Positions 1 to 24,526 of a stretch of 64,000 nt of DNA are shown here, in pieces. Position numbers and translations under genes: made by a program. The first letter of the stretch is position 1, and the number at the start of each line of letters is the position of its first letter. Below the pieces are notes generated by a model, which ran no database searches, was not told the origin of the DNA, and saw only the letters and a program-made list of their open reading frames with translations. Source of the stretch: a virus; IMG/VR virus record IMGVR_UViG_2799112330_000001, positions 1-64,000 of that record. One strand, 5' to 3'.

Positions 1-739
1 CATCTTCTGTAAAAAAGTTATCTGTAGGAACAGGATAAGCATCTATTACTTTAACTACTTCTTTAATTATATTTTCTTTATCTACATCTCCATAAGTATA
101 TGCTTCACCATAAGCGACCCAATTAAAATATACTTGTTCATAAAATAATTCATCTTCGGTTATATCTCTAATAACATTTAATAATTCTTGACCTTGAGCA
201 GAAATATCATCTACATAATTATCGTTAAAATCTTTAATAAATTTTTCTACATCAATTGAATTTTTAGGATTAAATTCTTTAGGATCTCCGCCTTCTTGTA
301 TAAATTGTTGATAAGCTTGTGTTATTTGTTGAGCTACAGCATTTTGAACAAGTATAGTAAGTTCCGCTTTAAGTTTTTGATCGCGAGCTAACATTACATC
401 AGGGTTGTTAGCACCAACTATAAATATATGAGGATTTTTAAGATACTCTCCAACATATCGTCTTATGATACCTTTTATAATATCATAATTTCTCATTGTT
501 GCAGGAAATCTTTTAAATTTTTCATTAGTAGCATTATAAGGATTTAATATCTTTTTATAAAATTCATCAGGTATTTTACCAGCCATGACGTTATATAAAG
601 TAGATATACGTTTTTCATCTTTGCAAGCCAATCCTTGAGATATAACATAATCACAACATTGAGCTGCCCATATTTTGTCTTTTTTACTCGCAGGAATTTT
701 CTGACGAGGAAAATCATAATTACTTAAAGGTGTAATCAT
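1..739 (-). CDS. portal protein, N-terminal part (gene runs off the window start)
   Basis: The reverse-strand frame is open from the ATG at 739-737 (MITPLSNYDFPRQKIPASKKDKIWAAQCCDYVISQGLACKDEKRISTLYNVMAGKIPDEFYKKILNPYNA...) down to base 1. It is absent from the ORF track only because it is truncated. It lies directly downstream of terL, as in crAss-like phages. The function is assigned from synteny and recall, not from a search. Confidence 0.5.
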   Translation of the reverse strand, partial: MITPLSNYDFPRQKIPASKKDKIWAAQCCDYVISQGLACKDEKRISTLYNVMAGKIPDEFYKKILNPYNATNEKFKRFPATMRNYDIIKGIIRRYVGEYLKNPHIFIVGANNPDVMLARDQKLKAELTILVQNAVAQQITQAYQQFIQEGGDPKEFNPKNSIDVEKFIKDFNDNYVDDISAQGQELLNVIRDITEDELFYEQVYFNWVAYGEAYTYGDVDKENIIKEVVKVIDAYPVPTDNFFTED

Positions 740-760
740 ATTTTAAATTATTTAAAAAAA

Positions 761-3091
761 TTAAAACCAATCTCTTGATAATATATCATTATCATGTTTA
801 TCTATATTATCTTCTGTAAGTTCTATTCTAGTTTTTAAAGCGTCTTCATTAAGAAGTTTCATTGCTTTCCATTCTATACCTCTTAAAATCATTGAAGAAA
901 CTCTATCATAGTTTCCATTCTCTGACCATTTCTTCAATTCCAATATCGATTGATAATCATATATTAATTGAAACATATGAATATCATTACCATTTTCATC
1001 TTTTCCAACTACTTCATATAAAAATTCTTTTAGCAATCGTAATCCCTCTAATTTATTTGCAGGAGTAATACTATATCCATAACTTGTACTAACTTTTTCT
1101 TTAAAATTATTATCCCAAACAAATACAGGATCAAATGAAAGATATTTTAAAGCATTCCATTTTTTAAAATTACTAACAGTTTCACCACGATTTATTTCGA
1201 CATTAGTTGTTCCTATACAATTATAATCTTTAGCAAGTTCATAACATATTCTATCTGCTTCTTCTAGTTTGTCAGGTCTACCATAATAATGGGCAACCAT
1301 TCCTCCTTTAAATCCGTTTAATGCATGTGGATTCATCCACACTTGTATACTATTATGAGAATGTTTATTTGTTATAGTTTTTCTATCCTTATCTATTCCT
1401 ACAGGGTCATAAGTAATACTATATAATCCTTTTGGAACTACTCGTATTCTAACTCCATTTTCAGTAATTTCTTCTTTTAATGGCTCAGCCCATCTACGAA
1501 TACAACCCATTGGATCTTCATTTTCTCTTCTTGGAACACTTTGTATATAATCATATATTTTTTTGCCTTCTTTTAATAATCTAGCATTAGATTTAAATAT
1601 TGTAACACCATTAGAATCCATATCATATCTACCATCAATATAAAATTTATAAGAACTATCCATTTTAAGTTTTTCTTCCCATGCAGTAAGTTCTTCAGAA
1701 CTAAATATATTTTCTGTTGTACTACTAAATGATTCTGCAGGATACAAAGCATATTGACCTAAATAATTTATATATTCAGCATAAGTTTTGGCATCATTTT
1801 TCTTTTTAATACGTTCTCTTTTTGCAACTTCAAGAGCGACTAAAATATTACTATTTCCCCATTTATCTAAAGCTAAAACTCCACCAACTTCACCTTGTAA
1901 TCCCCAAGCATAAGATTTAAAAAATCCACATATTTGATCTCTAGCGTCTTTATCCCAAACATTTTCAAATGGACAAAAATTATGAGCTTTAGGATTATAA
2001 AAGTTTAATTCAAATTCTTGCATAGAAGTACCTTCTGTAGTAGCAGTTCCCCATGCACATAAAAAACCTGTTGTATAACTACCAGTACGCATAGCAGGTT
2101 CAGTTACTTCCATAAATTTATCAAAATTATCCATAGTAGAAACTTCTTCCACATTTACCTTTATAGCATCTTTACCAATAGCACAATCAGGATTATTGTG
2201 AGCTGATACAGACAATAAAGCACTATGCCAACTTCCACTCCATTCTACATTATTTTTTAATTTTAAGCCTAATCGAAAATCAGTATCTACAGTCTTTAAA
2301 ATTCCTCTTTTAAATAAACCAGTATCTTCATAAAATTTCAAATCATTTAAAGCGAAGTCAGTAAGACCACCACGTTGTGTTAAATATTTACTATCTACAG
2401 CAACATTTATAACAACTTTATTTGGGTATAAATTTACAGCATTTGCAGAATTAGAAGCCATCATATAAGAAAAACCACCACGTCGTGTTTTATCTATTAA
2501 CATATGAAAGCCATTATTTCTTGCAAATTCTATACAATGAAAAGTCCAAAATTGAGCATCTATAAATTTAGGAAATCCTTTCTTTTTTGTAGCTACAGCA
2601 GTTCCTCCTTGTTTAATACTTTCTTCATCAAGTTCTTCCATTTGAGTATAATTAAGAAAGTTATAATGCTCTCCAGTAATTCTTACTTCTTCAATTTTTC
2701 CTTCAGGAGTTAATAAACAAGGTGCTTTAAATCCTTTATGTCGTCTATATGCTTCTCTATCGGCGATTCTATTATACATTATAGAGCCTTGCTTATAACT
2801 AGTATATTCGCCATTTTCATCATAGTATTGAGCCATTTTAGTAAATAAATCTGTATTAATAAATTTATATCCTGGTCTAATATTCATTAAAAATCCTCCA
2901 GTATGTCCAACTAAAAATAAATCATCAGGATCTTTAAAAGTTCTATATTCGTGTGTTTTCCAATATTCTTCATTTACAGTATAATCATTAATTTTAGGAT
3001 TTTCTATACTAAACCTAAAATCTTTAGCATGTATATAATGAGACTTATCTTCATTTATATAGTCTAAAAAAGGATAACCTGTATTTTCCAT
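761..3091 (-). CDS. terL: terminase large subunit
   Basis: 776 aa. It has a degenerate Walker-A-like DKTRRGGFS, a WGTATTEGT coupling-like motif, and C-terminal nuclease-like acidic boxes (YDPVGIDKD, VEINRGE, YDRVSS). Its size and its position between the lysis genes and the portal fit TerL. Confidence 0.7.
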   Translation of the reverse strand: MENTGYPFLDYINEDKSHYIHAKDFRFSIENPKINDYTVNEEYWKTHEYRTFKDPDDLFLVGHTGGFLMNIRPGYKFINTDLFTKMAQYYDENGEYTSYKQGSIMYNRIADREAYRRHKGFKAPCLLTPEGKIEEVRITGEHYNFLNYTQMEELDEESIKQGGTAVATKKKGFPKFIDAQFWTFHCIEFARNNGFHMLIDKTRRGGFSYMMASNSANAVNLYPNKVVINVAVDSKYLTQRGGLTDFALNDLKFYEDTGLFKRGILKTVDTDFRLGLKLKNNVEWSGSWHSALLSVSAHNNPDCAIGKDAIKVNVEEVSTMDNFDKFMEVTEPAMRTGSYTTGFLCAWGTATTEGTSMQEFELNFYNPKAHNFCPFENVWDKDARDQICGFFKSYAWGLQGEVGGVLALDKWGNSNILVALEVAKRERIKKKNDAKTYAEYINYLGQYALYPAESFSSTTENIFSSEELTAWEEKLKMDSSYKFYIDGRYDMDSNGVTIFKSNARLLKEGKKIYDYIQSVPRRENEDPMGCIRRWAEPLKEEITENGVRIRVVPKGLYSITYDPVGIDKDRKTITNKHSHNSIQVWMNPHALNGFKGGMVAHYYGRPDKLEEADRICYELAKDYNCIGTTNVEINRGETVSNFKKWNALKYLSFDPVFVWDNNFKEKVSTSYGYSITPANKLEGLRLLKEFLYEVVGKDENGNDIHMFQLIYDYQSILELKKWSENGNYDRVSSMILRGIEWKAMKLLNEDALKTRIELTEDNIDKHDNDILSRDWF

Positions 3092-3092
3092 A

Positions 3093-3506
3093 TTATTTAT
3101 TAATTAAAACAGATGTCACAACTGTTATTATAATACCTACTATACATCCTCCAGCAACACTACCATATATAATTTTCTTTTTTCTTTCACGTTCATATTG
3201 TTTTTGTAAATCTTCATTTATATTATTTATTTTAACTATACGTTCTTTTAAATCGTTTATTACAGTGTCTTGTTGTAATATATATTTATTGTTTAAAGTT
3301 ATAATAGAATCTTGAGCACTATTAACTTTTAACAAATATTTTCTTTCAATTAATTTATCATTAGCTTTTCTAATAATGTCAATATTTACACATGTGCAAC
3401 TATCTTCAATTATTTGTTCCCCTGTAGTGGTATCATTCGCTAACAAGTTGATAGAACAACTTAATAGCAGCAGAATCATTAATAATATTAGCTTGCTCTT
3501 TTTCAT
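3093..3506 (-). CDS. lysis-cassette protein with lipoprotein signal and C-terminal TMD (spanin-like)
   Basis: The start is taken at the internal Met (MKKSKLILLMILLLLSC...; cat at 3504-3506). Features are a lipobox-like LLSC, a central coiled-coil-like region, and a C-terminal hydrophobic segment IIYGSVAGGCIVGIIITVVTSVLI. The track ORF extends to 3536. Confidence 0.55.
   Translation of the reverse strand: MKKSKLILLMILLLLSCSINLLANDTTTGEQIIEDSCTCVNIDIIRKANDKLIERKYLLKVNSAQDSIITLNNKYILQQDTVINDLKERIVKINNINEDLQKQYERERKKKIIYGSVAGGCIVGIIITVVTSVLINK
3417..3430. repeat. dispersed motif copy (TTCCCCTGTAGTGG)
   Basis: Forward orientation on the plus strand, inside the spanin-like gene (read as TTGE on the minus strand). 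Confidence 0.6.
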
Positions 3507-3753
3507 ATTTATATTCTTGTTTATATTGTTCAACATTTTCTTTTTGTTCTTCTATTTCATATTTTATTTTTTCAATCTCTATTACATTAGTAACAGTATC
3601 TATAACAATAGTAGGCGATTGTGTCAATTTTTGTATCCGACCAATCAACAGTCCAAGTATCATAGTTAAAGTGACTATAATTAATATTCCAATACATATT
3701 ATTAAATGTATTTTTTTATTATTTTGTTCTTGATTGTTTTCCATATTTATCAA
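3433..3753 (-). CDS. lysis-cassette membrane protein (N-terminal TMD plus coiled coil; i-spanin- or holin-like)
   Basis: 106 aa. A single N-terminal TMD (IHLIICIGILIIVTLTMILGLLIG) is followed by a charged, heptad-like segment. Its 3' end overlaps the next gene out of frame (3433-3506). Confidence 0.5.
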   Translation of the reverse strand: MINMENNQEQNNKKIHLIICIGILIIVTLTMILGLLIGRIQKLTQSPTIVIDTVTNVIEIEKIKYEIEEQKENVEQYKQEYKYEKEQANIINDSAAIKLFYQLVSE

Positions 3754-4150
3754 TTAATTCATTAGACATTTTACCAGTTACTTTCATATTTTTAGCTTTT
3801 TGCATTAATTTAATAGTTGCAGTAATCCCACAATTTATTGCATTATCAAATAATTGTTCAGCAACACGTTGAGAATTAACTAAATCTAAATGTAAAGGAT
3901 CCCAATAATTATGTTTATAAATAACTTTAACTTCATTTTTAACACCTATATTATTTTTTAAACAATTATTTATATATTTTTTATCAGTCGATTGTTTTTT
4001 AATGTCATCAATAATAGTCCACAATTTAAGATTAGGATAATTCTTACGGGTAACACCCATATAAGTTTCACCGCCTTTATCATTAGGGTTATTTACATAT
4101 CCTCCTTCTGCTTTAATTGTTTTAGCAAAAGCTTTTTCAAATATTGCCAT
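3719..4150 (-). CDS. endolysin, glycoside hydrolase family 108 type (N-acetylmuramidase)
   Basis: The N-terminus FAKTIKAEGGYVNNPNDKGGETYMGVT matches the GH108 signature (EGGY...D.GG.T..G). Confidence 0.8.
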   Translation of the reverse strand: MAIFEKAFAKTIKAEGGYVNNPNDKGGETYMGVTRKNYPNLKLWTIIDDIKKQSTDKKYINNCLKNNIGVKNEVKVIYKHNYWDPLHLDLVNSQRVAEQLFDNAINCGITATIKLMQKAKNMKVTGKMSNELIDKYGKQSRTK

Positions 4151-4155
4151 AATAT

Positions 4156-4548
4156 TTAATCATTTAAAACTCTATTTATCCAACCCCTAAGAAATATAAT
4201 ATTATTATCTTGACTAGCGATTCTATTATATTCTCTGATTCTTTCTAATTTAATACTTAATATAGTTATTTCTGTATTTAAAGAATCAACTAATTCTTCA
4301 GATTCTAATAGTTCTTTATCGTATAAATAATTATAAGTTTTATACAAATCATATATACTATCATATTCACATTTAGAAACTACATTACTATATATACTAT
4401 CTTTATAATTTATTTCATTTTTCAAACTATCAATAACATATTCCATATTATCGATTTTTTTATCGGTACTAATATCTCTTAGTATCCCTGTTATCATTAT
4501 AACAACTATACAACAAATTGTTATAATAGTTACTGTTTTTATATTCAT
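4156..4548 (-). CDS. lysis-cassette membrane protein (N-terminal TMD plus coiled coil)
   Basis: 130 aa. An N-terminal TMD (TVTIITICCIVVIMITGIL) is followed by a helical charged region. It lies directly upstream of the endolysin. Confidence 0.5.
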   Translation of the reverse strand: MNIKTVTIITICCIVVIMITGILRDISTDKKIDNMEYVIDSLKNEINYKDSIYSNVVSKCEYDSIYDLYKTYNYLYDKELLESEELVDSLNTEITILSIKLERIREYNRIASQDNNIIFLRGWINRVLND

Positions 4549-4551
4549 AAT

Positions 4552-5547
4552 TTAAAATAATGTATTTGATGTTACTCTTGATGCACGAATTATTCGCTCT
4601 CTATCAGCTACAATTCGTACAATTTCATTATATCTATATGGCATTTTAAAAAATGTAGTTTTTTCTATAGGATTGTTTTTTATATGATATAATCCGTCAG
4701 GAAATCTTTTTGGCATTCCATATTCATTTAAAACAAAATCACTATCTATATGACAAAGCCATAATCCTTTACAAGGTAAACCTAAAATTTTTTGAACAGC
4801 ATAAGCATATAAACTAAGTTGTAAATTATATATACTACCGTTGCAATTTGGAAGATTTGCTACAGGTGGTAAAAGAAATTCTTTTTTAGTTACCCAAGTA
4901 TTAGTTAATTGTGCGGGTTTTTGACTCTTATCTTTTTTATAATATCCTGCTTCAAATTTAAGACCTCCACGATTTGTCTTCCAATCTCCTATTACAAAAT
5001 CTTCATCTCTAATTAATAAAACATCAATAGTTCCCGATATTAAACTATCAATAAGAAACATTCCTATTTCACTATATATTTTATATCCTCTATCTATATA
5101 CCATTGAAACACTCTATAAATTTCAGGATATTTATTTTCTGTCATATCTTTAAACTCATTAACGTCTAATGCTTTTATATTCATATCTATATTAGGAATA
5201 TCTGCTACAGTTATCATTTCACCATTTTCTTTTATCATATATTTCACTGCTTGTTTAAACATAGAATTTTCTTTAATACCGTCTTCTAAATTATTATGAG
5301 TTTTAGTACCACGTTCACAAGCTTCGTCTGTTATATTTTTCCATTGTTCTGCAAGACGTTTTTCAGATATACCAAGTTCTTTTGCTTTCTTTTTAAGCCA
5401 ATAATCTTTATCAAACTCTGGTGCATATTTATGCAACAAAGTAGTTGTACTTATAAATTCATTACCAAAAGTATCATTATATTTATGACCTTCTTCATGA
5501 AATATAAGTCTAACTTGATCATATCTTTTATCTTTAAGTTCTATCAT
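4552..5547 (-). CDS. PD-(D/E)XK (RecB/Cas4-like) nuclease
   Basis: 331 aa. It has an N-terminal HKY...STT motif, GTIDVLLIRDEDFVIGDWKTN (D ... D/E-x-K core), and a downstream YNLQLSLYAY (QxxxY-like). Confidence 0.65.
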   Translation of the reverse strand: MIELKDKRYDQVRLIFHEEGHKYNDTFGNEFISTTTLLHKYAPEFDKDYWLKKKAKELGISEKRLAEQWKNITDEACERGTKTHNNLEDGIKENSMFKQAVKYMIKENGEMITVADIPNIDMNIKALDVNEFKDMTENKYPEIYRVFQWYIDRGYKIYSEIGMFLIDSLISGTIDVLLIRDEDFVIGDWKTNRGGLKFEAGYYKKDKSQKPAQLTNTWVTKKEFLLPPVANLPNCNGSIYNLQLSLYAYAVQKILGLPCKGLWLCHIDSDFVLNEYGMPKRFPDGLYHIKNNPIEKTTFFKMPYRYNEIVRIVADRERIIRASRVTSNTLF

Positions 5548-6158
5548 TGCAATTTATGTTTATTTGCATCCATTGAATAAAGAATAGATTCTCCTCCACG
5601 TGCTTCCATTTCTTCTTGTTCATTTCTAAGATTGTCTTGAGCGACTTTTAGAGATGCTACATAATTTGGGAGTTCTGTAGAAAATTTACCTAATTTATTT
5701 CCTAAATCTATAATAGTAGCAACAGCAGATGGTTCTAAAGCATTTTTCATCATTGTATCAACAGTTTCACCTATTTTATTACTTGCATAAGAAAGTCTAT
5801 GTAAAGCTTTTTTAATATTTTCAATAGCAACACCTGCAGGAGTTATAGCATTTATATTATATCTATCTATCAATCTTTTTACTAATGGATCTGGTACATA
5901 ATCTTTAGGTAAATTGAAATTATCAATTGCTGCGTCTAATGTTTCTTTTTCTGTTAATCCATTTTGTCTTGGAGGACTATTAGGATCTCCCATATAATAT
6001 ATAACTCCACATTCAGCGATATATTTATTTTTATCTTTAGAATAATCTCTACGATATAATTCTAATACATCTTTATCAAGAATTTGTTCAATCGATACTG
6101 GTTGTACATTACCATATATATCGAAAGTTAATAAATTTCTAATATGTAGATTTGCCAT
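5544..6158 (-). CDS. hypothetical protein
   Basis: 204-aa ORF with a 4-nt ATGA-type overlap with the downstream gene. It is on the same strand as its neighbours, and I recognise no motif. Confidence 0.75.
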   Translation of the reverse strand: MANLHIRNLLTFDIYGNVQPVSIEQILDKDVLELYRRDYSKDKNKYIAECGVIYYMGDPNSPPRQNGLTEKETLDAAIDNFNLPKDYVPDPLVKRLIDRYNINAITPAGVAIENIKKALHRLSYASNKIGETVDTMMKNALEPSAVATIIDLGNKLGKFSTELPNYVASLKVAQDNLRNEQEEMEARGGESILYSMDANKHKLQ

Positions 6159-6161
6159 AAT

Positions 6162-6800
6162 TTATTTAGCATTTTGAAAAGCATCTTCAAAATCTTGATC
6201 AAAAGGTATAAACTCTAATAGAGTCATAGAATGAATAAAATGTTCAGCATAACTTTTTCCCATTACTTTACAACATTCGTCATATTCTTTTTTAAACATT
6301 TTTCTAAAATGATCTTCTTTACTTTTTTCATTTTGTCTTGCACTAAATTCACGCCAACCTTGTTTGTAAAAATCTATACGAACTTTTAATCTATCTCTAT
6401 TATTCATTTCAGGAGTATAATGTTGTTTAATTTCTTCAGCGTGTTTTTCTAAATATCTTTTACCAGCATTTATTTTAAACGTACCAACATATGGTAGATG
6501 AGCAACACATTCATTTAATAAAGTTTCTTTACAAAAAAGTTCAGCATTAAATACTATACTTGTTAATTTTTTTCTTTCTTCTTCAGTTATATCATTAATT
6601 TGATTTATTATATCTCTTTCTTCTAATACATTTACATCCCAATATTTTCCATCATACCATATTTTATTTTCATATTGAGAGGCGTCTAATTTTGGCTTTT
6701 CAGTATCTATTTTAGACATAGCCTTATTTGGCAATCTTCTCCATTCTCGTTTATACTCTTTTGATTTATGTTTATCTTTAAAATTAAAAGATAGTCCCAT
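6162..6800 (-). CDS. hypothetical protein
   Basis: 212-aa ORF, tightly packed in the minus-strand operon. I recognise no motif. Confidence 0.75.
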   Translation of the reverse strand: MGLSFNFKDKHKSKEYKREWRRLPNKAMSKIDTEKPKLDASQYENKIWYDGKYWDVNVLEERDIINQINDITEEERKKLTSIVFNAELFCKETLLNECVAHLPYVGTFKINAGKRYLEKHAEEIKQHYTPEMNNRDRLKVRIDFYKQGWREFSARQNEKSKEDHFRKMFKKEYDECCKVMGKSYAEHFIHSMTLLEFIPFDQDFEDAFQNAK

Positions 6801-6820
6801 AATATAAATTTTAACATCAA

Positions 6821-6864
6821 TAGCCTATATTTAATCCCCTGTAAAGGGAATGTCATATAGGCTA
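6821..6864 (-). terminator. nested hairpin (outer 10-bp stem enclosing a copy of the dispersed CCCC..GGG motif)
   Basis: TAGCCTATAT (6821-6830) pairs with ATATAGGCTA (6855-6864). Inside it lies tcccctgtaaagggaa (6835-6850). It sits between the stop of 6876..7508 and the start of 6162..6800. Confidence 0.5.
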
Positions 6865-6875
6865 TCGACAATTAC

Positions 6876-7508
6876 TTATTCAGCAACAGCATCGTTTAGT
6901 TCTTTTGCTTTAGCAGGAACTTCAGCATGAACTTCAGGAATTACCTTAATAAAAGGATCGTTATAACTAATGTTATTATCTACAGTTCCATGAATTGCTG
7001 TAACAGGTACAATTTTAAAGCTCATAAAGCAAATAGGATGTTCTTTAATAGGTACATTATTTTCATCCTTTGCAGTTCCAGAAAGAATTGTAGCTGTAAG
7101 ATAATTTTTCTCTTTAGGTTCTTTACTTGAAACAATTTTTTCTTCTCTGAGTAAATAAGAAATAATGTTTTCGTATGTTAAAGCACTAGGAGGAGTAATT
7201 TGAGTTCCTCTTGCAATATCTGATTCATCGATTATAACTTGTTGTCCTATTTTCCATTCTGCAGGAATAGCGTCCGAATTAATTTTAACAAGAACTGCAA
7301 TATCAACTGCACGAGTTTTTACTTTAGGATTGTTTAAAGTTATAAGAAAATCATACATACGAACTTGTCGTACAACTGCTACAATTGCATAATGCTTTGG
7401 AAGATTAATACAATTTGTAACATCTTCATAATACTGTGCTGGAATCTCATGAATTGATTGAGGAAGAGATAATGTATATCTCTCAACTCGACTTTGAAGA
7501 GTAATCAT
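6876..7508 (-). CDS. hypothetical protein (less AT-biased codons, own downstream hairpin)
   Basis: 210-aa ORF whose codon composition is visibly G+C-richer than its neighbours. Confidence 0.75.
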   Translation of the reverse strand: MITLQSRVERYTLSLPQSIHEIPAQYYEDVTNCINLPKHYAIVAVVRQVRMYDFLITLNNPKVKTRAVDIAVLVKINSDAIPAEWKIGQQVIIDESDIARGTQITPPSALTYENIISYLLREEKIVSSKEPKEKNYLTATILSGTAKDENNVPIKEHPICFMSFKIVPVTAIHGTVDNNISYNDPFIKVIPEVHAEVPAKAKELNDAVAE

Positions 7509-7556
7509 AAATTTGTTTGTTTAATTGTTAATATTGATATTAACTACAAATGTAGT

Positions 7557-7994
7557 TTAAAGAAGCATTACTAAAACTTTTTTACCATGAACGTCATCTT
7601 TTATATAATATTTATCATATAGATAAATTTTAGGATAAGCTTTTTTAACAATTCCTCTAGCAGTTAATTCATTTAATGCTCTAATATAAGTTGGTCTACT
7701 AATTTTATATTTAATACAAAATATTTTTTCAAATTTAGCATTACTTTCAATTTCACCACCATTTTTATTTAATTCTATAAATAAATTCTCACCATGTTTA
7801 GTAAGATTTAATAAATGAGCATAAATTTGTAATATATCTTGTTCTTCATTAGTCTTTTTAAAGACTGCAATAACATCTTTTTCTTTTCCCCATAATTTAG
7901 TTTTATTAGCAACAACAAACTCATCGTCTGTTTTATCTAATAAAAAATCATCTTGAGGAGCTATAAATTCATTAAAAACTGTTTTAAGTTCCAT
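7557..7994 (-). CDS. winged-helix/HTH DNA-binding protein (putative transcriptional regulator)
   Basis: 145 aa. The C-terminal ISRPTYIRALNELTARGIVKK reads as an HTH recognition-helix segment. It is the first gene downstream of the leftward promoter. Confidence 0.5.
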   Translation of the reverse strand: MELKTVFNEFIAPQDDFLLDKTDDEFVVANKTKLWGKEKDVIAVFKKTNEEQDILQIYAHLLNLTKHGENLFIELNKNGGEIESNAKFEKIFCIKYKISRPTYIRALNELTARGIVKKAYPKIYLYDKYYIKDDVHGKKVLVMLL

Positions 7995-8055
7995 AGTTGC
8001 AAATACATTATTTGTTCTACTTTAGTCTATTTTTTGTACATTTGTACAACCAGCA

Positions 8056-8087
8056 CAAAGATACAAAAAAAATTCCATATATGCAAA
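8056..8087 (-). promoter_or_regulatory. Bacteroides-type promoter (leftward)
   Basis: On the minus strand, TTTG (complement of 8084-8087), a 20-nt gap, then TAtcTTTG (complement of 8056-8063). This matches the -33 TTTG / -7 TAnnTTTG consensus. The ATG of the HTH gene is at 7994. Confidence 0.6.
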
Positions 8088-8103
8088 TTTTTTTGCAAAA
8101 TTA

Positions 8104-8135
8104 TTTGCAAAAATCGATTTTTTTTACTATCTTTG
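8104..8135 (+). promoter_or_regulatory. Bacteroides-type promoter (rightward)
   Basis: TTTG at 8104-8107, a 20-nt gap, then TAtcTTTG at 8128-8135. It fires into a region of about 1 kb that has no long ORF. Confidence 0.6.
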
Positions 8136-8140
8136 TAGGC

Positions 8141-8546
8141 ATATAAAAAGTTACATATATTATATAATGTACGCGCGTGAGTATGTCATATTATATAAAA
8201 TTTTATATGTTCTTATAAATTTTGAATATAATAGCATTAATGATATTAAAGAAAGCCGAGCCAAAGATTAAACAGAAACTCGTTTATCTGCGGACGGTAT
8301 ATATGCTTCGGCATATATCGAAGAAGTCCATGTTATGTTTCATAGCAATGTCAGTGACTATCTGGTGGTAGGGGTGTGGGTAGGGTTACGGTATCGTATC
8401 CCGCAAATAATATTATTAATGCTATAAAATATAATAATCGTTGTGATAACGATACTTTTTGATGTCATTTTGAGTGAATAGTTTTCGGTGTAGATTTATG
8501 TATGTTTAGATAGGAATTGTTGTGAAACAGTTCCTATCATTTTTTT
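8141..8546 (+). ncRNA. candidate structured non-coding RNA (about 400 nt)
   Basis: Bounded by the 8104-8135 promoter and the intrinsic terminator at 8509-8546. It contains a hairpin with a C(UUCG)G tetraloop (8299-8318), a G-tract (8364-8385), the hairpin GGGTTACG/CGTATCCC (8383-8402), and the hairpin ATCGTT/AACGAT (about 8437-8453). No ORF reaches the 60-aa track cutoff. Confidence 0.45.
8509..8546 (+). terminator. intrinsic terminator
   Basis: GATAGGAATTG (8509-8519) pairs with CAGTTCCTATC (8528-8538), with one U-G pair, and is followed by T6 (8541-8546). Confidence 0.65.
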
Positions 8547-8701
8547 ATGTTACTCATAATATTAATAAAAGCTAAAGGATAGTAGAACGTATATACTACA
8601 TATACGGGCATTAAATAAAATTAAAGTAATACCCCCGTTAGTGTTATTAATAAAAATATTTTTGTAAATAAATAAATAGGTGAGAAAGTTTTATGATACA
8701 A

Positions 8702-8718
8702 TCACTCTACAGGGGATT
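8702..8718. repeat. dispersed motif copy (TCACTCTACAGGGGATT)
   Basis: Reverse orientation, in non-coding sequence. Confidence 0.6.
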
Positions 8719-8879
8719 AAATATGAGATATAACTAAAATTGTTGATATTATTATAATTATTGTATTTAAATAAGTTATAAAGAATGTTTAATGGATTAT
8801 TATAATATATAAAATAATATATTAAATATATGAAGAGGTTTAATAATGTTATTAAGACGATTTAGGAAAAGATTATAGT

Positions 8880-8963
8880 GAAAATTATATGGAAAATTAT
8901 ATTGAAAATTATGATAAAGATTGTGGTGAAGATTTTAATGAAGATTTAGATGTAGATAGTAGG
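8880..8963. repeat. seven degenerate tandem 12-nt units
   Basis: The units are GAAAATTATATG / GAAAATTATATT / GAAAATTATGAT / AAAGATTGTGGT / GAAGATTTTAAT / GAAGATTTAGAT / GTAGATAGTAGG. They overlap a possible 31-aa acidic ORF (8889..8984). Confidence 0.6.
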
Positions 8964-9014
8964 ATAAAAAATTTTGTCGATTAGCGAGAAGAGGAGGGTA
9001 TTACCACAAAGGGT

Positions 9015-9045
9015 GGGGGTGTGATAAGTGAATGTCAATACCCCC
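9015..9045 (+). other. G/C-rich hairpin
   Basis: GGGGGTGT (9015-9022) pairs with ATACCCCC (9038-9045), with one G-U pair. It lies immediately upstream of conserved box 1. Confidence 0.5.
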
Positions 9046-9055
9046 GTCATATCGA

Positions 9056-9086
9056 ACCTCGTGAGAAAACAGGTCAGATTTCGAAT
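9056..9086 (+). promoter_or_regulatory. conserved 31-nt box, copy 1 (upstream of paralog A)
   Basis: ACCTCGTGAGAAAACAGGTCAGATTTCGAAT matches copy 2 at 10284-10314 at 27 of 31 positions. Confidence 0.5.
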
Positions 9087-9200
9087 GAATAAATGTTTTT
9101 CAAATATTATTCATTTATTACTGAAGTAAGTCATCTGACTACGCTTGCTTTAGCACATTATCCAATAAGTTAGTCACTCAATACAAATTCTGTTACAACT

Positions 9201-9788
9201 ATGGCACAGCCAAAAGCTAATGCAGTTGAGCAAGTTCCTGCACAAGTCGTTAACGCAGTTGAAACTGCAAGTGTTAATCTTCTTAGCTTCTCTGAAGCAG
9301 TCGATGCAACGATTGCTGATGGTGGCAAAGTAACAAAGGGTATTCATATTACTCGTGCGACTTATAGTCGTCGAGAAGATGGACACGAGATTGTTACTTT
9401 GACAGGCGATATACCTGTTGAGCGTTATGTTGCTGATGAGACAAATCCTGATGTATTTGTCAAATCAATGTCCAAGTCATTTGTTGTGTCATTATTCTCA
9501 TTAGTGGGAATGATGTCCAACATGAAGGACGCACAAGTGCTCGCAGGTCGTATCTCAAAGCGACCAATGTTGATAGAGAGTTTGCTACCAGGTAGTATTA
9601 TTACAGTAGTTCAACGTGATGTCAAAGGTAATGTTCCGTTTATGAACTACTTTAGTAACAAGGAGAATACTATCGATCATGATAGTATTGTTACCGACGT
9701 AGTCAAACTTGAAGTATCTGATTTTGCTCGTTCTATGATGGATGAGTACAAAAAGATGCTTGCATCTGCATTGATGGGAGACTTGTAG
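9201..9788 (+). CDS. hypothetical protein, paralog A of a duplicated gene
   Basis: 195 aa. By eye about 70 percent identical to the 10378..10932 product over the core ITRATYS..E.DGHE.VTLT...PDVFVKS.SK.FVVSLFSLVG.MS.MKDAQVLAGRISKRP...NVPFMNYFS.KENTIDHDS. Codons are G+C-richer than the genome. Confidence 0.85.
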   Translation: MAQPKANAVEQVPAQVVNAVETASVNLLSFSEAVDATIADGGKVTKGIHITRATYSRREDGHEIVTLTGDIPVERYVADETNPDVFVKSMSKSFVVSLFSLVGMMSNMKDAQVLAGRISKRPMLIESLLPGSIITVVQRDVKGNVPFMNYFSNKENTIDHDSIVTDVVKLEVSDFARSMMDEYKKMLASALMGDL

Positions 9789-9796
9789 TTGATGAT

Positions 9797-9834
9797 AGAT
9801 TTGCAGGTGATGATTGTTCATTGCCTGCAAATCT
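9797..9834 (+). terminator. hairpin/terminator after paralog A
   Basis: AGATTTGCAGG (9797-9807) pairs with CCTGCAAATCT (9824-9834). The T-tract is weak. Confidence 0.5.
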
Positions 9835-10377: not shown

Positions 10378-10932
10378 ATGAACGATGAAAAAGCAAAGGA
10401 AGTTGTAAGTCAGCCACAACTATTGACCTTTACTGAGGCAATTACTGCCACAAAAGCTGACAATGCATCTGAAGTAAAGAATCTTCAGATTACTCGTGCT
10501 ACATATTCAAAGCGTGAGGAAGATGGTCATGAAGTAGTGACATTAACAACAAGTGGTCTTGTTGACAGATATATTGCGGATAACGATAATCCCGATGTAT
10601 TTGTTAAGAGCAAAAGCAAAACTTTTGTAGTATCTTTGTTTAGTCTTGTAGGTGCTATGAGTCAAATGAAAGATGCTCAAGTTCTTGCTGGACGTATTTC
10701 TAAACGTCCTGTTCTTGTTGAATCTCTTCTTCCTGGTTCTACTATTACTGTACTTCAACGTGAAGTTAAGGCTAATGTTCCTTTCATGAATTATTTCAGT
10801 GGAAAGGAAAACACTATTGACCATGATAGTGTTGTAACAGATATTGCTGATATTAAGCTTGGAGAGTTTGCTCTTAGTACTCTTGATGCTTATAAGCAAA
10901 ATCTTGCTGCTGCTCTTATGGGCGATTTGTAA
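10378..10932 (+). CDS. hypothetical protein, paralog B of a duplicated gene
   Basis: 184 aa; see paralog A. Confidence 0.85.
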   Translation: MNDEKAKEVVSQPQLLTFTEAITATKADNASEVKNLQITRATYSKREEDGHEVVTLTTSGLVDRYIADNDNPDVFVKSKSKTFVVSLFSLVGAMSQMKDAQVLAGRISKRPVLVESLLPGSTITVLQREVKANVPFMNYFSGKENTIDHDSVVTDIADIKLGEFALSTLDAYKQNLAAALMGDL

Positions 10933-10939
10933 AAGAGTT

Positions 10940-10975
10940 GCTGCTGTATTGTGAAATACGGCAGCGATTCTTATT
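10940..10975 (+). terminator. intrinsic terminator after paralog B
   Basis: GCTGCTGTATT (10940-10950), a GTGA loop, then AATACGGCAGC (10955-10965) with one U-G pair, followed by a T-rich tail. Confidence 0.55.
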
Positions 10976-11063
10976 GTAACAGAATTTTCAGGTACATTAT
11001 AATACCATAAGTGTTATAGTGTACCATTTAATGCAGCTAATTAACAGTCGTAAGCCTGTGTAA

Positions 11064-11237
11064 ATGCAGAACGAAATGAAAATTCTTGTTGATAGTGATA
11101 TTATTATTAAAGAAGTTGATAAATGTGATGATGGAGCAGCTCCTGCTCTCCATTCTAATCATTTTACTAATAATATTACTAATCCATTTCAAATAATTAA
11201 TACAAGAATTAAACAAATGAAACTTATATACATTTAG
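11064..11237 (+). CDS. possible small ORF (57 aa)
   Basis: MQNEMKILVDSDIIIKEVDKCDDGAAPALHSNHF... falls below the track cutoff. It is the only sizeable forward ORF in the 10.97-11.93 kb gap, and coding status is uncertain. Confidence 0.3.
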   Translation: MQNEMKILVDSDIIIKEVDKCDDGAAPALHSNHFTNNITNPFQIINTRIKQMKLIYI

Positions 11238-11515
11238 TGTAATTAAATATATATTACTAATGTTATATTATCAATTTTAATTTCCGCACTATAAAGCGCG
11301 CCTATTGATATGACAATAATAATGTTGGTAATATAAATACTATCATTTAATATGATATAATTGTAAATCATTTTGCTATTTAATACATCGATTGACGATG
11401 TCTTCGCTGATGATACGCAATATATCATTTAGATGATAGCAATTCATGAAATCCTACTTGGAGACGAGAAACGGCTCATATTGAGTATCGTAAAGTTAAT
11501 CCTTGATAGGTTGCA

Positions 11516-11589
11516 TCAAGAGATACAGCAAAATATATCAGACAGTTTGTTGGTTTATAATGTCTTGATTATTTTGTTGTATTTCTTGA
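11516..11589 (+). ncRNA. long imperfect helix inside an untranslated 1-kb gap (structured RNA candidate)
   Basis: 11516-11535 pairs with 11570-11589 (20 bp, and the two non-Watson-Crick pairs are both G-U on the plus strand). The helix continues at 11537-11544 with 11561-11569. Confidence 0.4.
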
Positions 11590-11929
11590 GATAGTTTATG
11601 TTGAGCCTAGAGCACATAATGCTGCTATAGGTAGAATTTTTCCCATAGTACGTGATTTAGAAACCAACTATGTTAGCAGTCAGAATAACTGTTATTACAG
11701 TAAATCGTCATGCTGTGATAAATATCATATAATGTCAAAAATATGATATGATGACAACGATGCTAAGCAAAAAGCTGGTAACGATAAGAAAGAGATAGGT
11801 GAGAAGAGTGCACTCGCATCTAGACTATCTCTTTATCTTAATGTAGCCAATCGATATGATTGAGAGTCCAAAGCCTCTATAAATACAGATGGAGATAATA
11901 TTATTAATAACAAATAAATTCACGCAATC

Positions 11930-12388: not shown

Positions 12389-12409
12389 TGTTCCCCTGTA
12401 GAGGGAACA
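12389..12409. repeat. dispersed motif copy, full form (TGTTCCC-CTGTAGA-GGGAACA)
   Basis: 7-bp arms. It begins 4 nt after the stop of 11930..12385. Confidence 0.75.
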
Positions 12410-15186: not shown

Positions 15187-15272
15187 GCCGTGATGGTGGA
15201 ATAGGTAGACACGAAAGACTTAAAATCTTTTGACCAGAAATGGTTGTGTGGGTTCAAGTCCCACTCGCGGTA
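15187..15272 (+). tRNA. tRNA-Leu (anticodon UAA), type II with long variable arm
   Basis: Manual cloverleaf: GCCGTGA/TCGCGGT acceptor; GTG-GAATAGGTAGA-CAC D arm; AAAGA-CTTAAAA-TCTTT anticodon arm; 17-nt variable arm; GTGGG-TTCAAGT-CCCAC T arm; discriminator A. No CCA is encoded. Confidence 0.9.
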
Positions 15273-23154: not shown

Positions 23155-24526
23155 TGAAAAATATGCAAAAGAAATAATGTCTGCTTTTCAAACTGCTAAA
23201 GGTAAAGGATATTGTTTTTGTATAAATCCTATATTACCATATAAATTAGTTGCACAAACTGCAATTGGTATTAGTAGTAAAGATGAAAGTAGAAAAATAC
23301 TTATTGTAACACCTTATTATGATGTTACAAATAAGATTAAAGGAGAATTAATAAAGATTGATAATAAAGAATATACTAATATATCTTATTTAACTAAATT
23401 ATATGTAAATCCTAAATACAACTATAATTATGATTGTACAATTGTTGTTGGAGTAAATGGTGAAGATAGTATTGATTTAGAATTATTGAGAAAACTTGAT
23501 AGTTGTAGTAAATTTACTTTATTTATATTTACTATAAATTCTTTGCCTAATGATATAAATTTATTTCTTACTAAACATAGTAATTTTCTAAAAACAACAG
23601 TTACTCCAAATGAAGCTCGTATGGCTTATCTTTATTCCCCTGTAGAGGAATGGAGATGTGGAGTAGAATTATCAGAAACTGATAGAGAAGAATATGATAA
23701 AGCAAATCAATATATTGCTGACTGTATAAGTATTTTTGGAGATTTAAAAACTATTGAAAAATGTGCTCGCGGTGATAAATTATTAAATATAAGTGCAAGC
23801 GAATTTAGATATAATTTTGCTATTGAAAATGGTTGGAATGAACATTTAAATATGAATTCTGATTATGAAAAAAGTATAGATGAAATTTATAATCCAAATA
23901 CATTAAATGAAAAAGCAAATACTTTTTATACTATTACACATAAAAGAAAAGAAATAGCGATAAATAATGATAATAAATTAATTGAAATAGGTAAAATAGT
24001 AAGAGAAAATTATGATAAAAAAATATGTATAGTTTCTAAATCTGGAGAAATGGCATTAGCTATTGCTAATTATTTAAATGGAGAAGAATTTGCTGAATTA
24101 AATATAAAATGTGGTCAATATCATGATTGTATACCAGAAACTTATGGTATCGATGATGAAGGTAATATATTAATTCGAAAAAGTGGTAAAGATAAAGGTA
24201 AACCTGTTATTCTTAAATCACAAGCCTCTTCGACGCAATATGAAAGACTATATAATTTTGACATTATTAATATAATGAGTATAAAATTTGCTTCTAATGT
24301 TAAATTAAAAATATCTTTTGACTTAATTATTTTTACAGATTGTTTAACAGCAAATATAATTGATTTTAAAAGTCGTTTTATAAATAGTTATTGTAATAGT
24401 TTACCTAATAAAGTATATAGATTGTATAGTACAAATACTATTGAAGAAAAATCTTTAAATAGTGAAAATATAATGTCAAATGTACAAATAATGTCGCATA
24501 TTGAAGAAAAATTCATTTTTGATTAA
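23141..24526 (+). CDS. hypothetical replication-module protein (possibly a degenerate helicase-like fold)
   Basis: 461 aa. There is no clear Walker A. The C-terminal half (ICIVSKSGEMALAIANYL ... VILKSQASSTQYERL) loosely resembles a helicase C-terminal domain. The functional call is weak. Confidence 0.3.
   Translation: MMTPNEKYAKEIMSAFQTAKGKGYCFCINPILPYKLVAQTAIGISSKDESRKILIVTPYYDVTNKIKGELIKIDNKEYTNISYLTKLYVNPKYNYNYDCTIVVGVNGEDSIDLELLRKLDSCSKFTLFIFTINSLPNDINLFLTKHSNFLKTTVTPNEARMAYLYSPVEEWRCGVELSETDREEYDKANQYIADCISIFGDLKTIEKCARGDKLLNISASEFRYNFAIENGWNEHLNMNSDYEKSIDEIYNPNTLNEKANTFYTITHKRKEIAINNDNKLIEIGKIVRENYDKKICIVSKSGEMALAIANYLNGEEFAELNIKCGQYHDCIPETYGIDDEGNILIRKSGKDKGKPVILKSQASSTQYERLYNFDIINIMSIKFASNVKLKISFDLIIFTDCLTANIIDFKSRFINSYCNSLPNKVYRLYSTNTIEEKSLNSENIMSNVQIMSHIEEKFIFD
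23635..23650. repeat. dispersed motif copy (TTCCCCTGTAGAGGAA)
   Basis: Inside 23141..24526, where it is read as SPVEE. Confidence 0.65.

Follow-up and report, generated by a model that had tools for sequence, protein, structure and literature searches.

What is encoded between positions 8141 and 8546 of a rumen crAss-like phage, where a promoter-to-terminator unit had been predicted to specify a structured non-coding RNA? We addressed this question using the whole stretch of DNA available to us (hereafter the window; 64,000 nt, positions 1 to 64,000 of IMG/VR record IMGVR_UViG_2799112330_000001), and conclude, with a probability of about 0.8, that 8141-8546 is a self-contained gene for a real structured non-coding RNA. 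The sequence features, conservation, covariation, strand and absence of coding potential of this unit are observed directly, and the original prediction is supported by relatives, by covariation and by the lack of a conserved open reading frame (ORF). The folded RNA, about 400 nt long and with its own predicted promoter and terminator, appears from sequence comparison to lie outside every Rfam 15 family, as had also been supposed: across the whole window, gathering score with the Rfam 15 covariance models is reached by two tRNAs only; over 7900-9300 the best E-value under permissive filters is 1.4; and the RNA region of the homologous stretches in lineages B-F gives no match. ARAGORN, applied to tRNAs and tmRNAs, reports only two tRNAs, at 15187 and 16451.

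The predicted transcript folds considerably better than expected from its composition (minimum free energy (MFE) -107.5 kcal/mol on the plus strand, against -83.1 ± 4.8 in shuffles; z = -5.1, with 0/100 shuffles as good), and it contains a conserved core of about 200 nt (8230-8427) within its roughly 405 nt. Syntenic regions recovered from rumen and gut assemblies, from cohorts such as PRJEB21624 and related cattle studies, reveal four lineages (A-D) that, at about 60% identity, keep one shared architecture: an AU-rich closing helix of 17-24 bp, a GCCN/NGGU helix, a hairpin that differs completely in sequence from lineage to lineage, two invariant stretches left unpaired (CGAAG and CUGGUGGUAGGG..GGG), and a terminator. 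In a model-guided alignment (A8) that was fitted to the structure and covers three of the four core-bearing lineages, 28 of 60 pairs are changed on both sides and 96.2% of cells pair; shuffles of this alignment give 8.9 ± 2.3 such changes (0/500 reach 28), and slid controls give 2-7. The fourth lineage (L071) scores 19.9 bits (E = 0.034) with our covariance model R2 and was otherwise aligned by hand, and the helices checked by hand in all four lineages agree with A8. A MAFFT alignment of the core across lineages (A4) was misaligned in its 5′ half, and it was therefore replaced by A8 and the hand-checked helices. Helices P1, P2, P3 and P4 and the terminator covary among relatives, as the original prediction would have it.

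The core is closed by P1, whose 5′ arm (8232-8248) pairs with its 3′ arm (8408-8424) at 17/17 positions, five of which are changed on both sides; lineage B has a perfect 24-bp helix of different sequence at this site, and lineages C and D have helices of 17-19 bp with a bulge. A conserved AAAGCC precedes the P2 domain (8255-8298), which comprises a GCCG/CGGU base helix, a CC/GG helix and an inner stem-loop (8265-8289) with the loop AGAAACUC. The base helix covaries (GCCG/CGGU, GCCU/AGGU, CCUAUU/AAUAGG), the length of the P2 interior varies among lineages, and in strain L019 both sides of one inner-stem pair are changed, turning A-U into U-A. P3 (8299-8318) is the 8-bp helix with a C(UUCG)G tetraloop that had been noticed at this position (AUAUAUGC-UUCG-GCAUAUAU); 7/8 of its pairs are changed on both sides, and its stem, distinct in sequence in each of the four lineages, is always 7-8 bp long, always at the same site and always followed by CGAAG. 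This pentanucleotide (8319-8323), directly 3′ of P3, is unpaired and identical in A-D. The P4 domain (8325-8359) consists of an AGUC/GACU helix (8325-8328 with 8356-8359) around a hairpin at 8329-8350; the inner hairpin occurs in all four lineages with differing sequences and the outer helix in A and B only, with 4/4 outer pairs and 5/9 inner pairs changed on both sides.

The most conserved parts of the core are CGAAG and the unpaired G-tract, CUGGUGGUAGGGGUGUGGGUAGGG at 8362-8385, which includes the G-rich stretch GGTGGTAGGGGTGTGGGTAGGG correctly recognised earlier at 8364-8385. It is unpaired in the consensus, contains at least five runs of at least two Gs, and in all four lineages holds CUGGUGGUAGGG, 3-5 further nucleotides and GGG; no conserved Watson-Crick partner for it was found. 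A CUAUC/GGUAG hairpin over the G-tract appears in the lineage A MFE fold and was omitted from the consensus because it is not conserved in B-D. At the 3′ end of the tract lies P5 (8383-8402, GGGUUACG/CGUAUCCC), the site of the hairpin GGGTTACG/CGTATCCC of the original prediction, which indeed forms there with 7 pairs and one U.U mismatch; a U>A change in strain L019 repairs this mismatch. P5 is an optional element: lineage A has it, lineage B has it with another sequence, and C and D lack it. Motifs resembling those of RNase P, GAAAGUCC and ACAGAAAC, were seen by eye in lineages A and C; we regard them as coincidence, because their order is wrong and no RNase P model matches.

Upstream of the unit, a rightward promoter had been proposed, and one is predicted, though not of the sigma-70 type: the best sigma-70-type match near the start of the unit, at 8136-8163, scores only 9/12, and such matches are found 31 times, against 25 expected in shuffles. 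Bacteroides promoters have a consensus of TTTG at -33 and TAnnTTTG at -7, about 19-21 nt apart. Positions 8104-8135 agree with this Bacteroidota primary-sigma consensus and are predicted to be a plus-strand promoter, with TTTG at 8104-8107, a 20-nt spacer and the -7 box TATCTTTG at 8128-8135; the rightward transcript would then start at about 8141-8145. The pattern TTTG-N18-23-TATCTTTG has two matches in 64 kb, against 0.31 expected, namely 8104-8135 and its mirror image at 8056-8087, and the promoter site is conserved, its -7 box being identical, across lineages A-E and G. We take the conserved and statistically unusual promoter to be the Bacteroidota-type one at 8104-8135.

At the other end, a terminator scan puts the predicted intrinsic terminator at 8509-8546, where it had been placed, and its sequence agrees with what is expected of such terminators, but the stem has 13 pairs rather than 11 bp (8509-8538, with a 4-nt GUGA loop) and is followed by an A and a run of seven Us rather than six. 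A terminator hairpin and U-run occur at the same place in lineages A-E, and the changes within it are compensatory or lead to G.U, so that pairing is retained only as plus-strand RNA. Between core and terminator lies a linker (8425-8508) that is unconserved between lineages, where its length ranges from 70 to 160 nt, and nearly invariant within lineage A (1.2 variable sites per 100 nt). Right after the terminator, the density of sites that vary between strains goes up from 0 to 15 per 100 nt.

The core is carried by only four independent lineages, and the behaviour of two others is informative. Lineage F is without the -33/-7 region, the RNA core and the terminator, while the flanking genes and a divergent leftward promoter are retained; in lineage E, promoter and terminator enclose a different, shorter insert. 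As promoter, core and terminator are lost jointly in lineage F, the unit is an accessory promoter-RNA-terminator cassette, and the losses in F together with the insert in E argue for a promoter dedicated to the RNA rather than to the genes downstream. The distribution of the RNA appears, from the sequences searched, to be narrow and confined to a few rumen and gut lineages. Positions 7500-9800 had no blastn match among GenBank phages, and tblastn found only distant relatives at 23-31% identity, the nearest of which, cr271_1, contains no copy by model R2. No relatives were found in IMG/VR through the flanking proteins, and an exact scan of IMG/VR for the G-tract motif gave 0 matches; a relaxed scan gave 41, all of them chance or coding (e.g. 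Walker-A codons). A two-motif pattern had eight matches in JGI metagenomes and two in GTDB genomes, all unrelated, and their G+C content of 45-66% contrasts with the AT-rich phage context. The many short AU-hairpin matches returned by unfiltered model searches were disregarded.

What such an RNA might do is a separate question, and the mode of action that we infer, covering promoter use, transcript ends, release in trans and binding mechanism, is that of a trans-acting early RNA which binds a partner through its G-rich platform; we consider this the likeliest mode, at slightly less than even odds. Host RNA polymerase would start at the Bacteroidota-consensus promoter (8104-8135) and make a transcript of about 405 nt that would end at the strong intrinsic terminator. 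In this transcript the long AU-rich helix would close a multi-helix junction of P2, P3, P4 and, in some lineages, P5, displaying three invariant single-stranded motifs: AAAGCC, CGAAG and the G-tract CUGGUGGUAGGG..GGG. Once released, the RNA would act in trans during early infection, its G-rich platform holding as partner either a protein (of host or phage) or a small ligand. It would then be a decoy, sequestering or anti-defence RNA and not a base-pairing regulator.

Several features of the locus recommend this mode of action. The terminator lies 85-160 nt beyond the core, across an unconserved linker, and a discrete RNA therefore fits better than a switch. Furthermore, the most conserved nucleotides are unpaired, G-rich and without a conserved complement, which fits a binding platform; no antisense targets of the G-tract were found within the 64-kb window. 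The platform itself may fold as a two-tier G-quadruplex, which its five or more conserved runs of at least two Gs make possible: with G-quadruplexes allowed, ViennaRNA places a two-tier quadruplex in the MFE structure of lineages C and D, and not in those of A and B. A bolder version, which we put forward as a long shot, is that the RNA represents a new class of phage effector, either an immediate-early, host-transcribed RNA with a G-quadruplex that neutralises a Bacteroidota host factor or defence, or one that sets a P4 CI-like immunity or persistence state, in each case as a swappable cassette of crAss-like phages. If true, this would provide a first function for the unexplained abundant early non-coding RNAs of this phage order.

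The rival that survives best holds that the RNA is a cis-acting leader of the early operon, its core sensing or modifying something and so controlling whether transcription passes the terminator (8509-8546) and enters the genes from 9201 onwards, whether as an attenuator or riboswitch, by processive antitermination as at HK022 put, or by premature termination as with P4 CI; even taking these forms jointly, we judge it unlikely. The order of elements is that of a leader (promoter, structured RNA, terminator, early genes in the same orientation), no further consensus -33/-7 promoter lies between 8546 and 9201, and a winged-helix regulator is encoded divergently, as in phage switch regions. The location would also suit a role in cis: the unit stands at a strand switch with a GC-skew minimum, and 12-nt tandem repeats follow downstream. 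The G-tract is also the best upstream partner of the terminator 3′ arm in lineages A-C, at -7 to -10 kcal/mol. However, the 11-13-bp terminator stems are far stronger than this pairing, which lineage D lacks (-3.5 kcal/mol there, rank 162/358), and we rejected an antiterminator of this kind as weak (-3.5 to -10 kcal/mol) and unconserved. The 85-160 nt of linker that part terminator from core are themselves unconserved, so no switching sequence overlaps the terminator, which neither overlaps nor adjoins the P1 closing helix, as the terminator of a riboswitch or attenuator would. About 650 nt, including variable tandem repeats, then separate the terminator from the first gene. Neither is the association with genes constant, as it would be for a riboswitch, given the different insert of lineage E and the missing unit of lineage F; moreover, lineage F keeps the downstream genes without the promoter at 8104-8135, and another promoter must therefore serve those genes. 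Finally, no riboswitch or leader family in Rfam matches.

A second rival, which we consider distinctly improbable, links the RNA to replication, with transcription from 8104-8135 through the G-rich stretch forming an R-loop, supplying a primer or activating an origin, for which ColE1 RNA II, the T4 and T7 origin promoters and mitochondrial CSB II offer analogies. The cumulative GC-skew minimum and a strand switch fall at about 8000-8200, although the coding strand also changes there, which confounds the skew signal. With 83 G against 48 C the transcript is rich in G, strains vary in how many copies they carry of the iteron-like 12-nt tandem repeats at 8869-8946, and the genes downstream include 195-aa and 184-aa paralogues that are weakly SSB/OB-like, an SF1 helicase and a family B DNA polymerase. 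In addition, the leader hairpin HP1 (8160-8198 on the plus strand, in the MFE fold), AT-rich and with a CGCGCG tip, is retained even where the RNA is missing. Set against this, the strong conserved terminator would, as predicted, free the RNA before the repeats are reached, and covariation involving G.U pairs reflects selection on an RNA fold that neither primer nor R-loop needs. Lineages E and F are, moreover, without the G-tract core, which consequently cannot be essential for replication.

HP1 also bears on the possibility, in our view very improbable, that the inverted repeats and the G-tract act at the level of DNA, as duplex, cruciform or quadruplex, perhaps binding proteins or serving as signals for packaging or recombination. 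Hairpins of the HP1 form, with differing arm sequences, occur in lineages A-F, and because lineage F keeps HP1 without promoter and core, this hairpin may be an element of the DNA that has no part in what the RNA does. The closing helix is likewise a long AT-rich inverted repeat, and the minus strand of 8141-8546 also folds beyond chance (z = -4.9), so similarly to the plus strand that the z-score alone leaves the strand undecided. The strand is instead fixed as plus by the G.U pairs and by model R2, which scores 233.7 bits on the plus strand against 23 bits on the minus strand. Many conserved G.U pairs would become A.C mismatches on the other strand and would be meaningless in duplex DNA; at P1, all four strain-level changes (A>G, G>A, A>G, C>U) retain pairing via G.U and are thus compatible only with plus-strand RNA. 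The conserved promoter and terminator, too, flank the unit in one orientation.

That the stretch instead encodes one or more small proteins, for example from a 34-aa ORF at 8167-8271 or the TTG-initiated 49-aa ORF at 8222-8371, is scarcely credible: although such short ORFs are present in 8141-8546 and gene callers do call a 31-aa gene at 8889-8984 in the same intergenic region, no gene is called within 8141-8546 on any contig, no frame is open in the homologous stretch of B, C or D, and the indels and total turnover of stem sequences are incompatible with a conserved peptide. The earlier description of the stretch as free of ORFs holds to the extent that the longest ORF touching it, on either strand, is that of 49 aa with its TTG start. 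A conserved small ORF, the finding that would have told against a non-coding RNA, does not emerge from the sequences: three-frame forward translations of lineages A-E have stops in every frame and no peptide in common. The stop codons are mixed (TAA, TGA and TAG), so a reassigned stop opens no frame, and we rejected an alternative genetic code along with the small ORF.

Few viruses of gut ecosystems are as abundant as the crAss-like phages, and to our knowledge little is understood of their takeover of, and coexistence with, Bacteroidota hosts. In phi14:2, the only member studied in depth, the early transcripts that stand out most are long non-coding RNAs. They arise from long intergenic regions where the rightward early module begins, outnumber most mRNAs as early as the first time point and are still present late, and the early transcripts have no common upstream motif, with early genes needing the virion RNA polymerase (Drobysheva et al., bioRxiv 10.1101/2020.03.07.982082). 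The phi14:2 RNAs from g004-g005 and g005-g006 are the closest precedent for the RNA described here, in position and kind only: both come from a Crassvirales phage with a Bacteroidota host, are non-coding and are read rightward from an extended stretch without genes where the rightward early/replicative module begins. Model R2 has no match in positions 1-9000 of phi14:2, which belongs to the Steigviridae, whereas the nearest GenBank relatives of this window are Intestiviridae. The two further differ in that the RNA described here has a predicted host-type consensus promoter in place of early transcripts lacking a common motif, and in that the phi14:2 RNAs are known by expression and this one by structure and covariation. 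The locus thus offers a compact non-coding RNA at a genome position equivalent to that of the phi14:2 early RNAs, with predicted ends, a covariation-backed consensus structure, a short list of invariant nucleotides and natural variants without the cassette, and together these make the role of early non-coding RNAs in crAss-like phages testable with a 200-nt RNA.

Riboswitch and attenuator leaders share with this unit a promoter, a P1-closed multi-helix domain with invariant unpaired nucleotides and a terminator before genes on the same strand; here, however, a variable linker of 85-160 nt parts the terminator from the closing helix, lineage F shows that the genes can persist without the cassette, and there is neither an Rfam family nor an association with metabolic genes to hint at a ligand. 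The pRNA of phi29 is a discrete structured phage RNA with its own promoter and terminator and, like ours, is a few hundred nucleotides long and lies beside early genes; no similarity in sequence or structure was found, no Rfam family scores below E = 1 and nothing points to packaging, and, unlike pRNA, the RNA described here is dispensable in related lineages. HK022 put (two short stem-loops) and P4 CI RNA (processed to about 80 nt, its complementary targets lying in its own operon) act on transcription elongation or termination in early operons. Both are structured RNAs at the start of an early transcript with terminators just downstream, but the core here is about 200 nt and no conserved complementary target occurs in the window; between the G-tract and the ACCCCCGU motifs downstream, pairing extends over no more than 7 bp, by eye and in lineage A only. 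With G-quadruplex aptamers, ColE1 RNA II and CSB II, the unit shares GG and GGG tracts with 1-3-nt loops, single-stranded on a helical scaffold. In contrast to those quadruplexes, no more than a predicted two-tier one is possible in all lineages, and in contrast to G-rich primer RNAs the transcript ends at a terminator and not at an origin. In this very AT-rich genome, the RNA is also a candidate for a natural RNA whose G-quadruplex, or G-rich binding platform, is functional.

On the upstream side, the mirror-image promoter at 8056-8087 (predicted, minus strand) is arranged back to back with that of the RNA, amid TTTGCAAA and TTTGTACA repeats at 8033-8048 and 8078-8112. It would serve the gene at 7557-7994, whose 145-aa winged-helix product resembles MarR/SlyA-type winged-helix domains over its C-terminal half (Foldseek probability 0.98-1.0, E about 0.01), and it is kept in all lineages, F included.

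The unit at 8141-8546 is conserved, strand-specific, non-coding, structured and set between a promoter and a terminator, and we consider it probable (roughly 80%) that it is a real structured ncRNA gene. It occupies part of a 1.2-kb gap without genes (7995-9200), flanked by two divergently oriented genes, in what is part of a crAss-like phage. Two giant ORFs (4723 and 2245 aa) run on the minus strand of the window, which also encodes an SF1 helicase, a family B DNA polymerase and an exonuclease, and has its nearest GenBank relatives in the Intestiviridae, at 23-31% protein identity. The same sequence is found on an 89-kb cow-rumen metagenome contig and on many shorter rumen contigs. The left flank of the gap, divergent from the RNA gene, is a 145-aa gene (7557-7994, minus strand), whose product is 100% identical between strains differing by up to 13% in intergenic DNA and is modelled as disordered in its N-terminal half and as a MarR/SlyA-like winged helix in its C-terminal half. 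To the right lie a 195-aa gene with a weak OB/SSB-like fold (9201-9788, plus strand) and a 184-aa paralogue (10378-10932, plus strand). Neither paralogue has a Pfam or PHROG match; Foldseek matches to the AlphaFold model (pLDDT 81.6) are weak, but every one is an OB-fold SSB or PriB protein (E ~0.01, TM 0.2-0.27), and the two may be divergent single-strand-binding proteins.

crAss-like phages infect Bacteroidota, whose promoter consensus is TTTG at -33 and TAnnTTTG at -7. The pattern TTTG-N18-23-TATCTTTG occurs only twice in the 64 kb (0.31 expected), as a back-to-back pair within the gap: a rightward promoter at 8104-8135 (plus strand, TTTG-N20-TATCTTTG) and its leftward mirror at 8056-8087 (minus strand), which also matches the Bacteroidota consensus. 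Sigma-70-type promoter matches are not enriched over shuffles. The putative rightward promoter would give a start at about 8141, where the original prediction opened the unit. Between the two promoters, at 8033-8048 and 8078-8112, are repeats of TTTGTACA (2 copies) and TTTGCAAA-type (3 copies) that look like putative operators of the 145-aa protein.

When we re-inspected the sequence, all of the elements first described for the unit were present: the UUCG hairpin (8299-8318), the G-tract (8364-8385), the hairpin GGGTTACG/CGTATCCC (8383-8402), which contains one U.U mismatch, and the terminator (8509-8546), whose stem is 13 bp (8509-8538) followed by A and T7 rather than 11 bp followed by T6. 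No ORF longer than 49 aa overlaps the unit, and an Rfam scan gave no match. The plus strand has an MFE of -107.5 kcal/mol (z = -5.1 against dinucleotide shuffles) and the minus strand folds likewise (z = -4.9), so stability alone cannot settle the strand; a rebuilt covariance model of the RNA (R2, see below) scores 233.7 bits on the plus strand of the window versus 23 bits on the minus strand.

DNA searches of GenBank phages with the gap region found nothing, and protein-seeded searches of IMG/VR found no homologous loci. Exact-protein look-ups recovered strain variants with 87-97% identity across the gap, which together with the window form lineage A, and protein searches with both flanking genes recovered diverged syntenic loci: lineages B (contig L020), C (L021-L023), D (L071), E (L070), F (L072-L074) and G (L084, partial). 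Where aligned, the window gap is 63% identical to lineage B and 59% to lineage C. Only chance matches were returned by scans of IMG/VR for the G-tract pattern and of JGI metagenomes and GTDB genomes for a CGAAG...G-tract pattern, and neither cr271_1, the nearest GenBank relative, nor phi14:2 carries a copy of the RNA; so far the family is known only from ENA and Logan assemblies, in a few lineages of rumen, gut and faecal origin.

Lineages A-D have one architecture in common, from promoter through terminator. Downstream of an identical -7 box lies HP1 (8160-8198), an AU-rich hairpin whose tip reads CGCGCG, followed by P1, the long helix that closes the core. P1 has 17 bp in A and 17-19 bp plus a bulge in C and D; in B it is a perfect 24-bp helix of other sequence. 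An AAAG(C/U)CC segment precedes P2, where the interior is variable and the base helix shows covariation (GCCG/CGGU, GCCU/AGGU, CCUAUU/AAUAGG); then come P3, a 7-8-bp hairpin wholly different in sequence from lineage to lineage, an unpaired and invariant CGAAG, the sequence-variable hairpin P4, and the G-tract motif, consisting of an invariant CUGGUGGUAGGG, 3-5 nt and GGG. An optional hairpin, P5, occurs only in A and B, and an unconserved linker of 70-160 nt precedes a terminator hairpin and U-run that show compensatory and G.U changes between lineages. At least five runs of at least two G with short loops are kept in all lineages, and a two-tier G-quadruplex is predicted in C and D.

Strain-level changes agree with this proposed architecture. 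In P1, pairing survives as G.U after three purine transitions on the 5' side and a C>U on the 3' side; an A>G in P3 gives a G.U pair, and one variant (L019) both turns a P2 A-U pair into U-A and mends the P5 mismatch by U>A. A covariance model built from lineage A and the proposed structure (R1) scores 79.7 bits on lineage B and 24.7 bits on lineage C. In the resulting model-guided alignment (A8), 96.2% of cells hold standard pairs and both sides change in 28 of 60 pairs, against 8.9 +/- 2.3 in shuffles (0/500 as high) and 2-7 when the 3' partners are slid by 1-3 columns; these counts are biased towards the structure, since A8 was fitted to it and holds only three independent lineages. A helix table checked by hand, with lineage D included, leads to the same conclusion, and R2 finds lineage D weakly (19.9 bits, E = 0.034) in the expected place and on the expected strand. 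Three-frame translation of lineages A-E gives stops in every frame and no common peptide, which agrees with the non-coding reading; stop-codon reassignment opens no frame, as the stop codons are mixed, and gene callers placed no gene in the unit on any contig.

Lineage F is without the -33/-7 region, core and terminator; what it retains is the leftward promoter together with HP1 and the flanking genes. In lineage E (L070 2565-2845, minus strand), the promoter, HP1 and terminator enclose a different insert of ~190 nt that does not match the RNA model, so that one promoter-terminator cassette may house different RNAs from phage to phage. Strains of lineage A have 0-2 variable sites per 100 nt in the promoter, leader, linker and terminator and 6.6 in the core, mostly pair-preserving, and variability leaps to 15 per 100 nt directly past the terminator. 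Together with the losses and swaps in F and E, this pattern makes it appear that the promoter serves the RNA rather than the downstream genes. The RNA is dispensable, a pattern of an accessory gene. HP1 is present in all lineages and, because F keeps it without the rightward promoter, may act at the DNA level (as an unwinding element, cruciform or operator) and not as part of the RNA.

Our tentative functional reading, which we hold at somewhat under even odds, is that the RNA would be released and act in trans, binding a partner via its invariant unpaired nucleotides. Conservation is highest at single-stranded, G-rich positions, for which neither the RNA nor the window offers a conserved complement; the helices would serve as a scaffold free to vary in sequence. 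We favour this mode because of these features, the distant strong terminator and the accessory cassette. A cis-acting leader, antitermination element or RNA-immunity element is unlikely: the linker separates core from terminator, pairing between G-tract and terminator is weak and not conserved, and lineage F keeps the flanking genes without core and terminator. Less likely again is an origin-associated primer or R-loop RNA, which the GC-skew minimum at the locus, 12-nt tandem repeats and adjoining replication genes suggest, but which the terminator, the covariation and the missing core in E and F oppose. A DNA-level element is very improbable, and a small protein, given stops in every frame, slightly more so.

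The nearest precedent is in phi14:2, where two long intergenic regions open the rightward early module and yield RNAs that exceed most mRNAs in abundance from the earliest time point and carry no assigned function (bioRxiv 10.1101/2020.03.07.982082); the likeness is in position and kind only, as R2 finds nothing there. The unit also resembles a riboswitch leader but fails two of its defining features, an adjacent expression platform and a constant gene association; on these grounds we place it in a new RNA family of a known kind, phage-encoded structured ncRNAs. It is a real, sharply delimited candidate gene, with good comparative support and a narrow distribution. It should interest phage and RNA specialists, the more so if the RNA turns out to help the phage take over its host, evade defence or persist.

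Several other elements stand out. Two type-P1 twister ribozyme matches on the plus strand, at 11025-11078 (44.4 bits, E = 7e-7) and 11835-11896 (57.1 bits, E = 1.5e-10), were missed by the standard scan because both fall under the Rfam gathering score of 67.2. They enclose ~760 nt of a gene-poor stretch (10933-11929), and lineage B has the same pair (L020 5699-5752 and 6799-6859); two such self-cleaving ribozymes could release a defined RNA, possibly able to circularise. An iteron-like 12-nt tandem repeat at 8869-8946 (wider array 8868-8957; consensus AAGATTATAATG, ~6.5 copies) lies in a strongly purine-skewed stretch; its copy number and length vary by strain (~80-110 nt longer in L012 and L014), and it may be an origin or protein-binding array. 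The motif CTNTACAGGGGWT, which folds as a short hairpin (CC-UNUACA-GG), is enriched in the window, with 16 matches on both strands at up to two mismatches versus 3.3 expected: one at 8705-8717 (plus) and 15 others, for example at 6834-6846, 12391-12403, 23635-23647 and 30178-30190 (all minus). Of these, the few checked against the ORF list fall at gene ends or between them. The intergenic-gap copy is conserved in A and C-F and has the variant form UUUACGGGGAA in B; the motif may be a terminator, processing site or promoter element. Finally, a second conserved block at ~8985-9095, just upstream of the 195-aa gene, is found in every lineage from A to F except D, whose contig stops short of it. 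It comprises a GGGGG...CCCCC hairpin ending in ACCCCCGTCAT, then AACCTCGTGAGAAAACAGGTCAGATTTCGA-type units, which lineage C carries in duplicate and F in 3-4 repeats. The window has ACCCCCGTYA at 8631 and 9040 only, and the block may represent a leader, operator or further RNA element.
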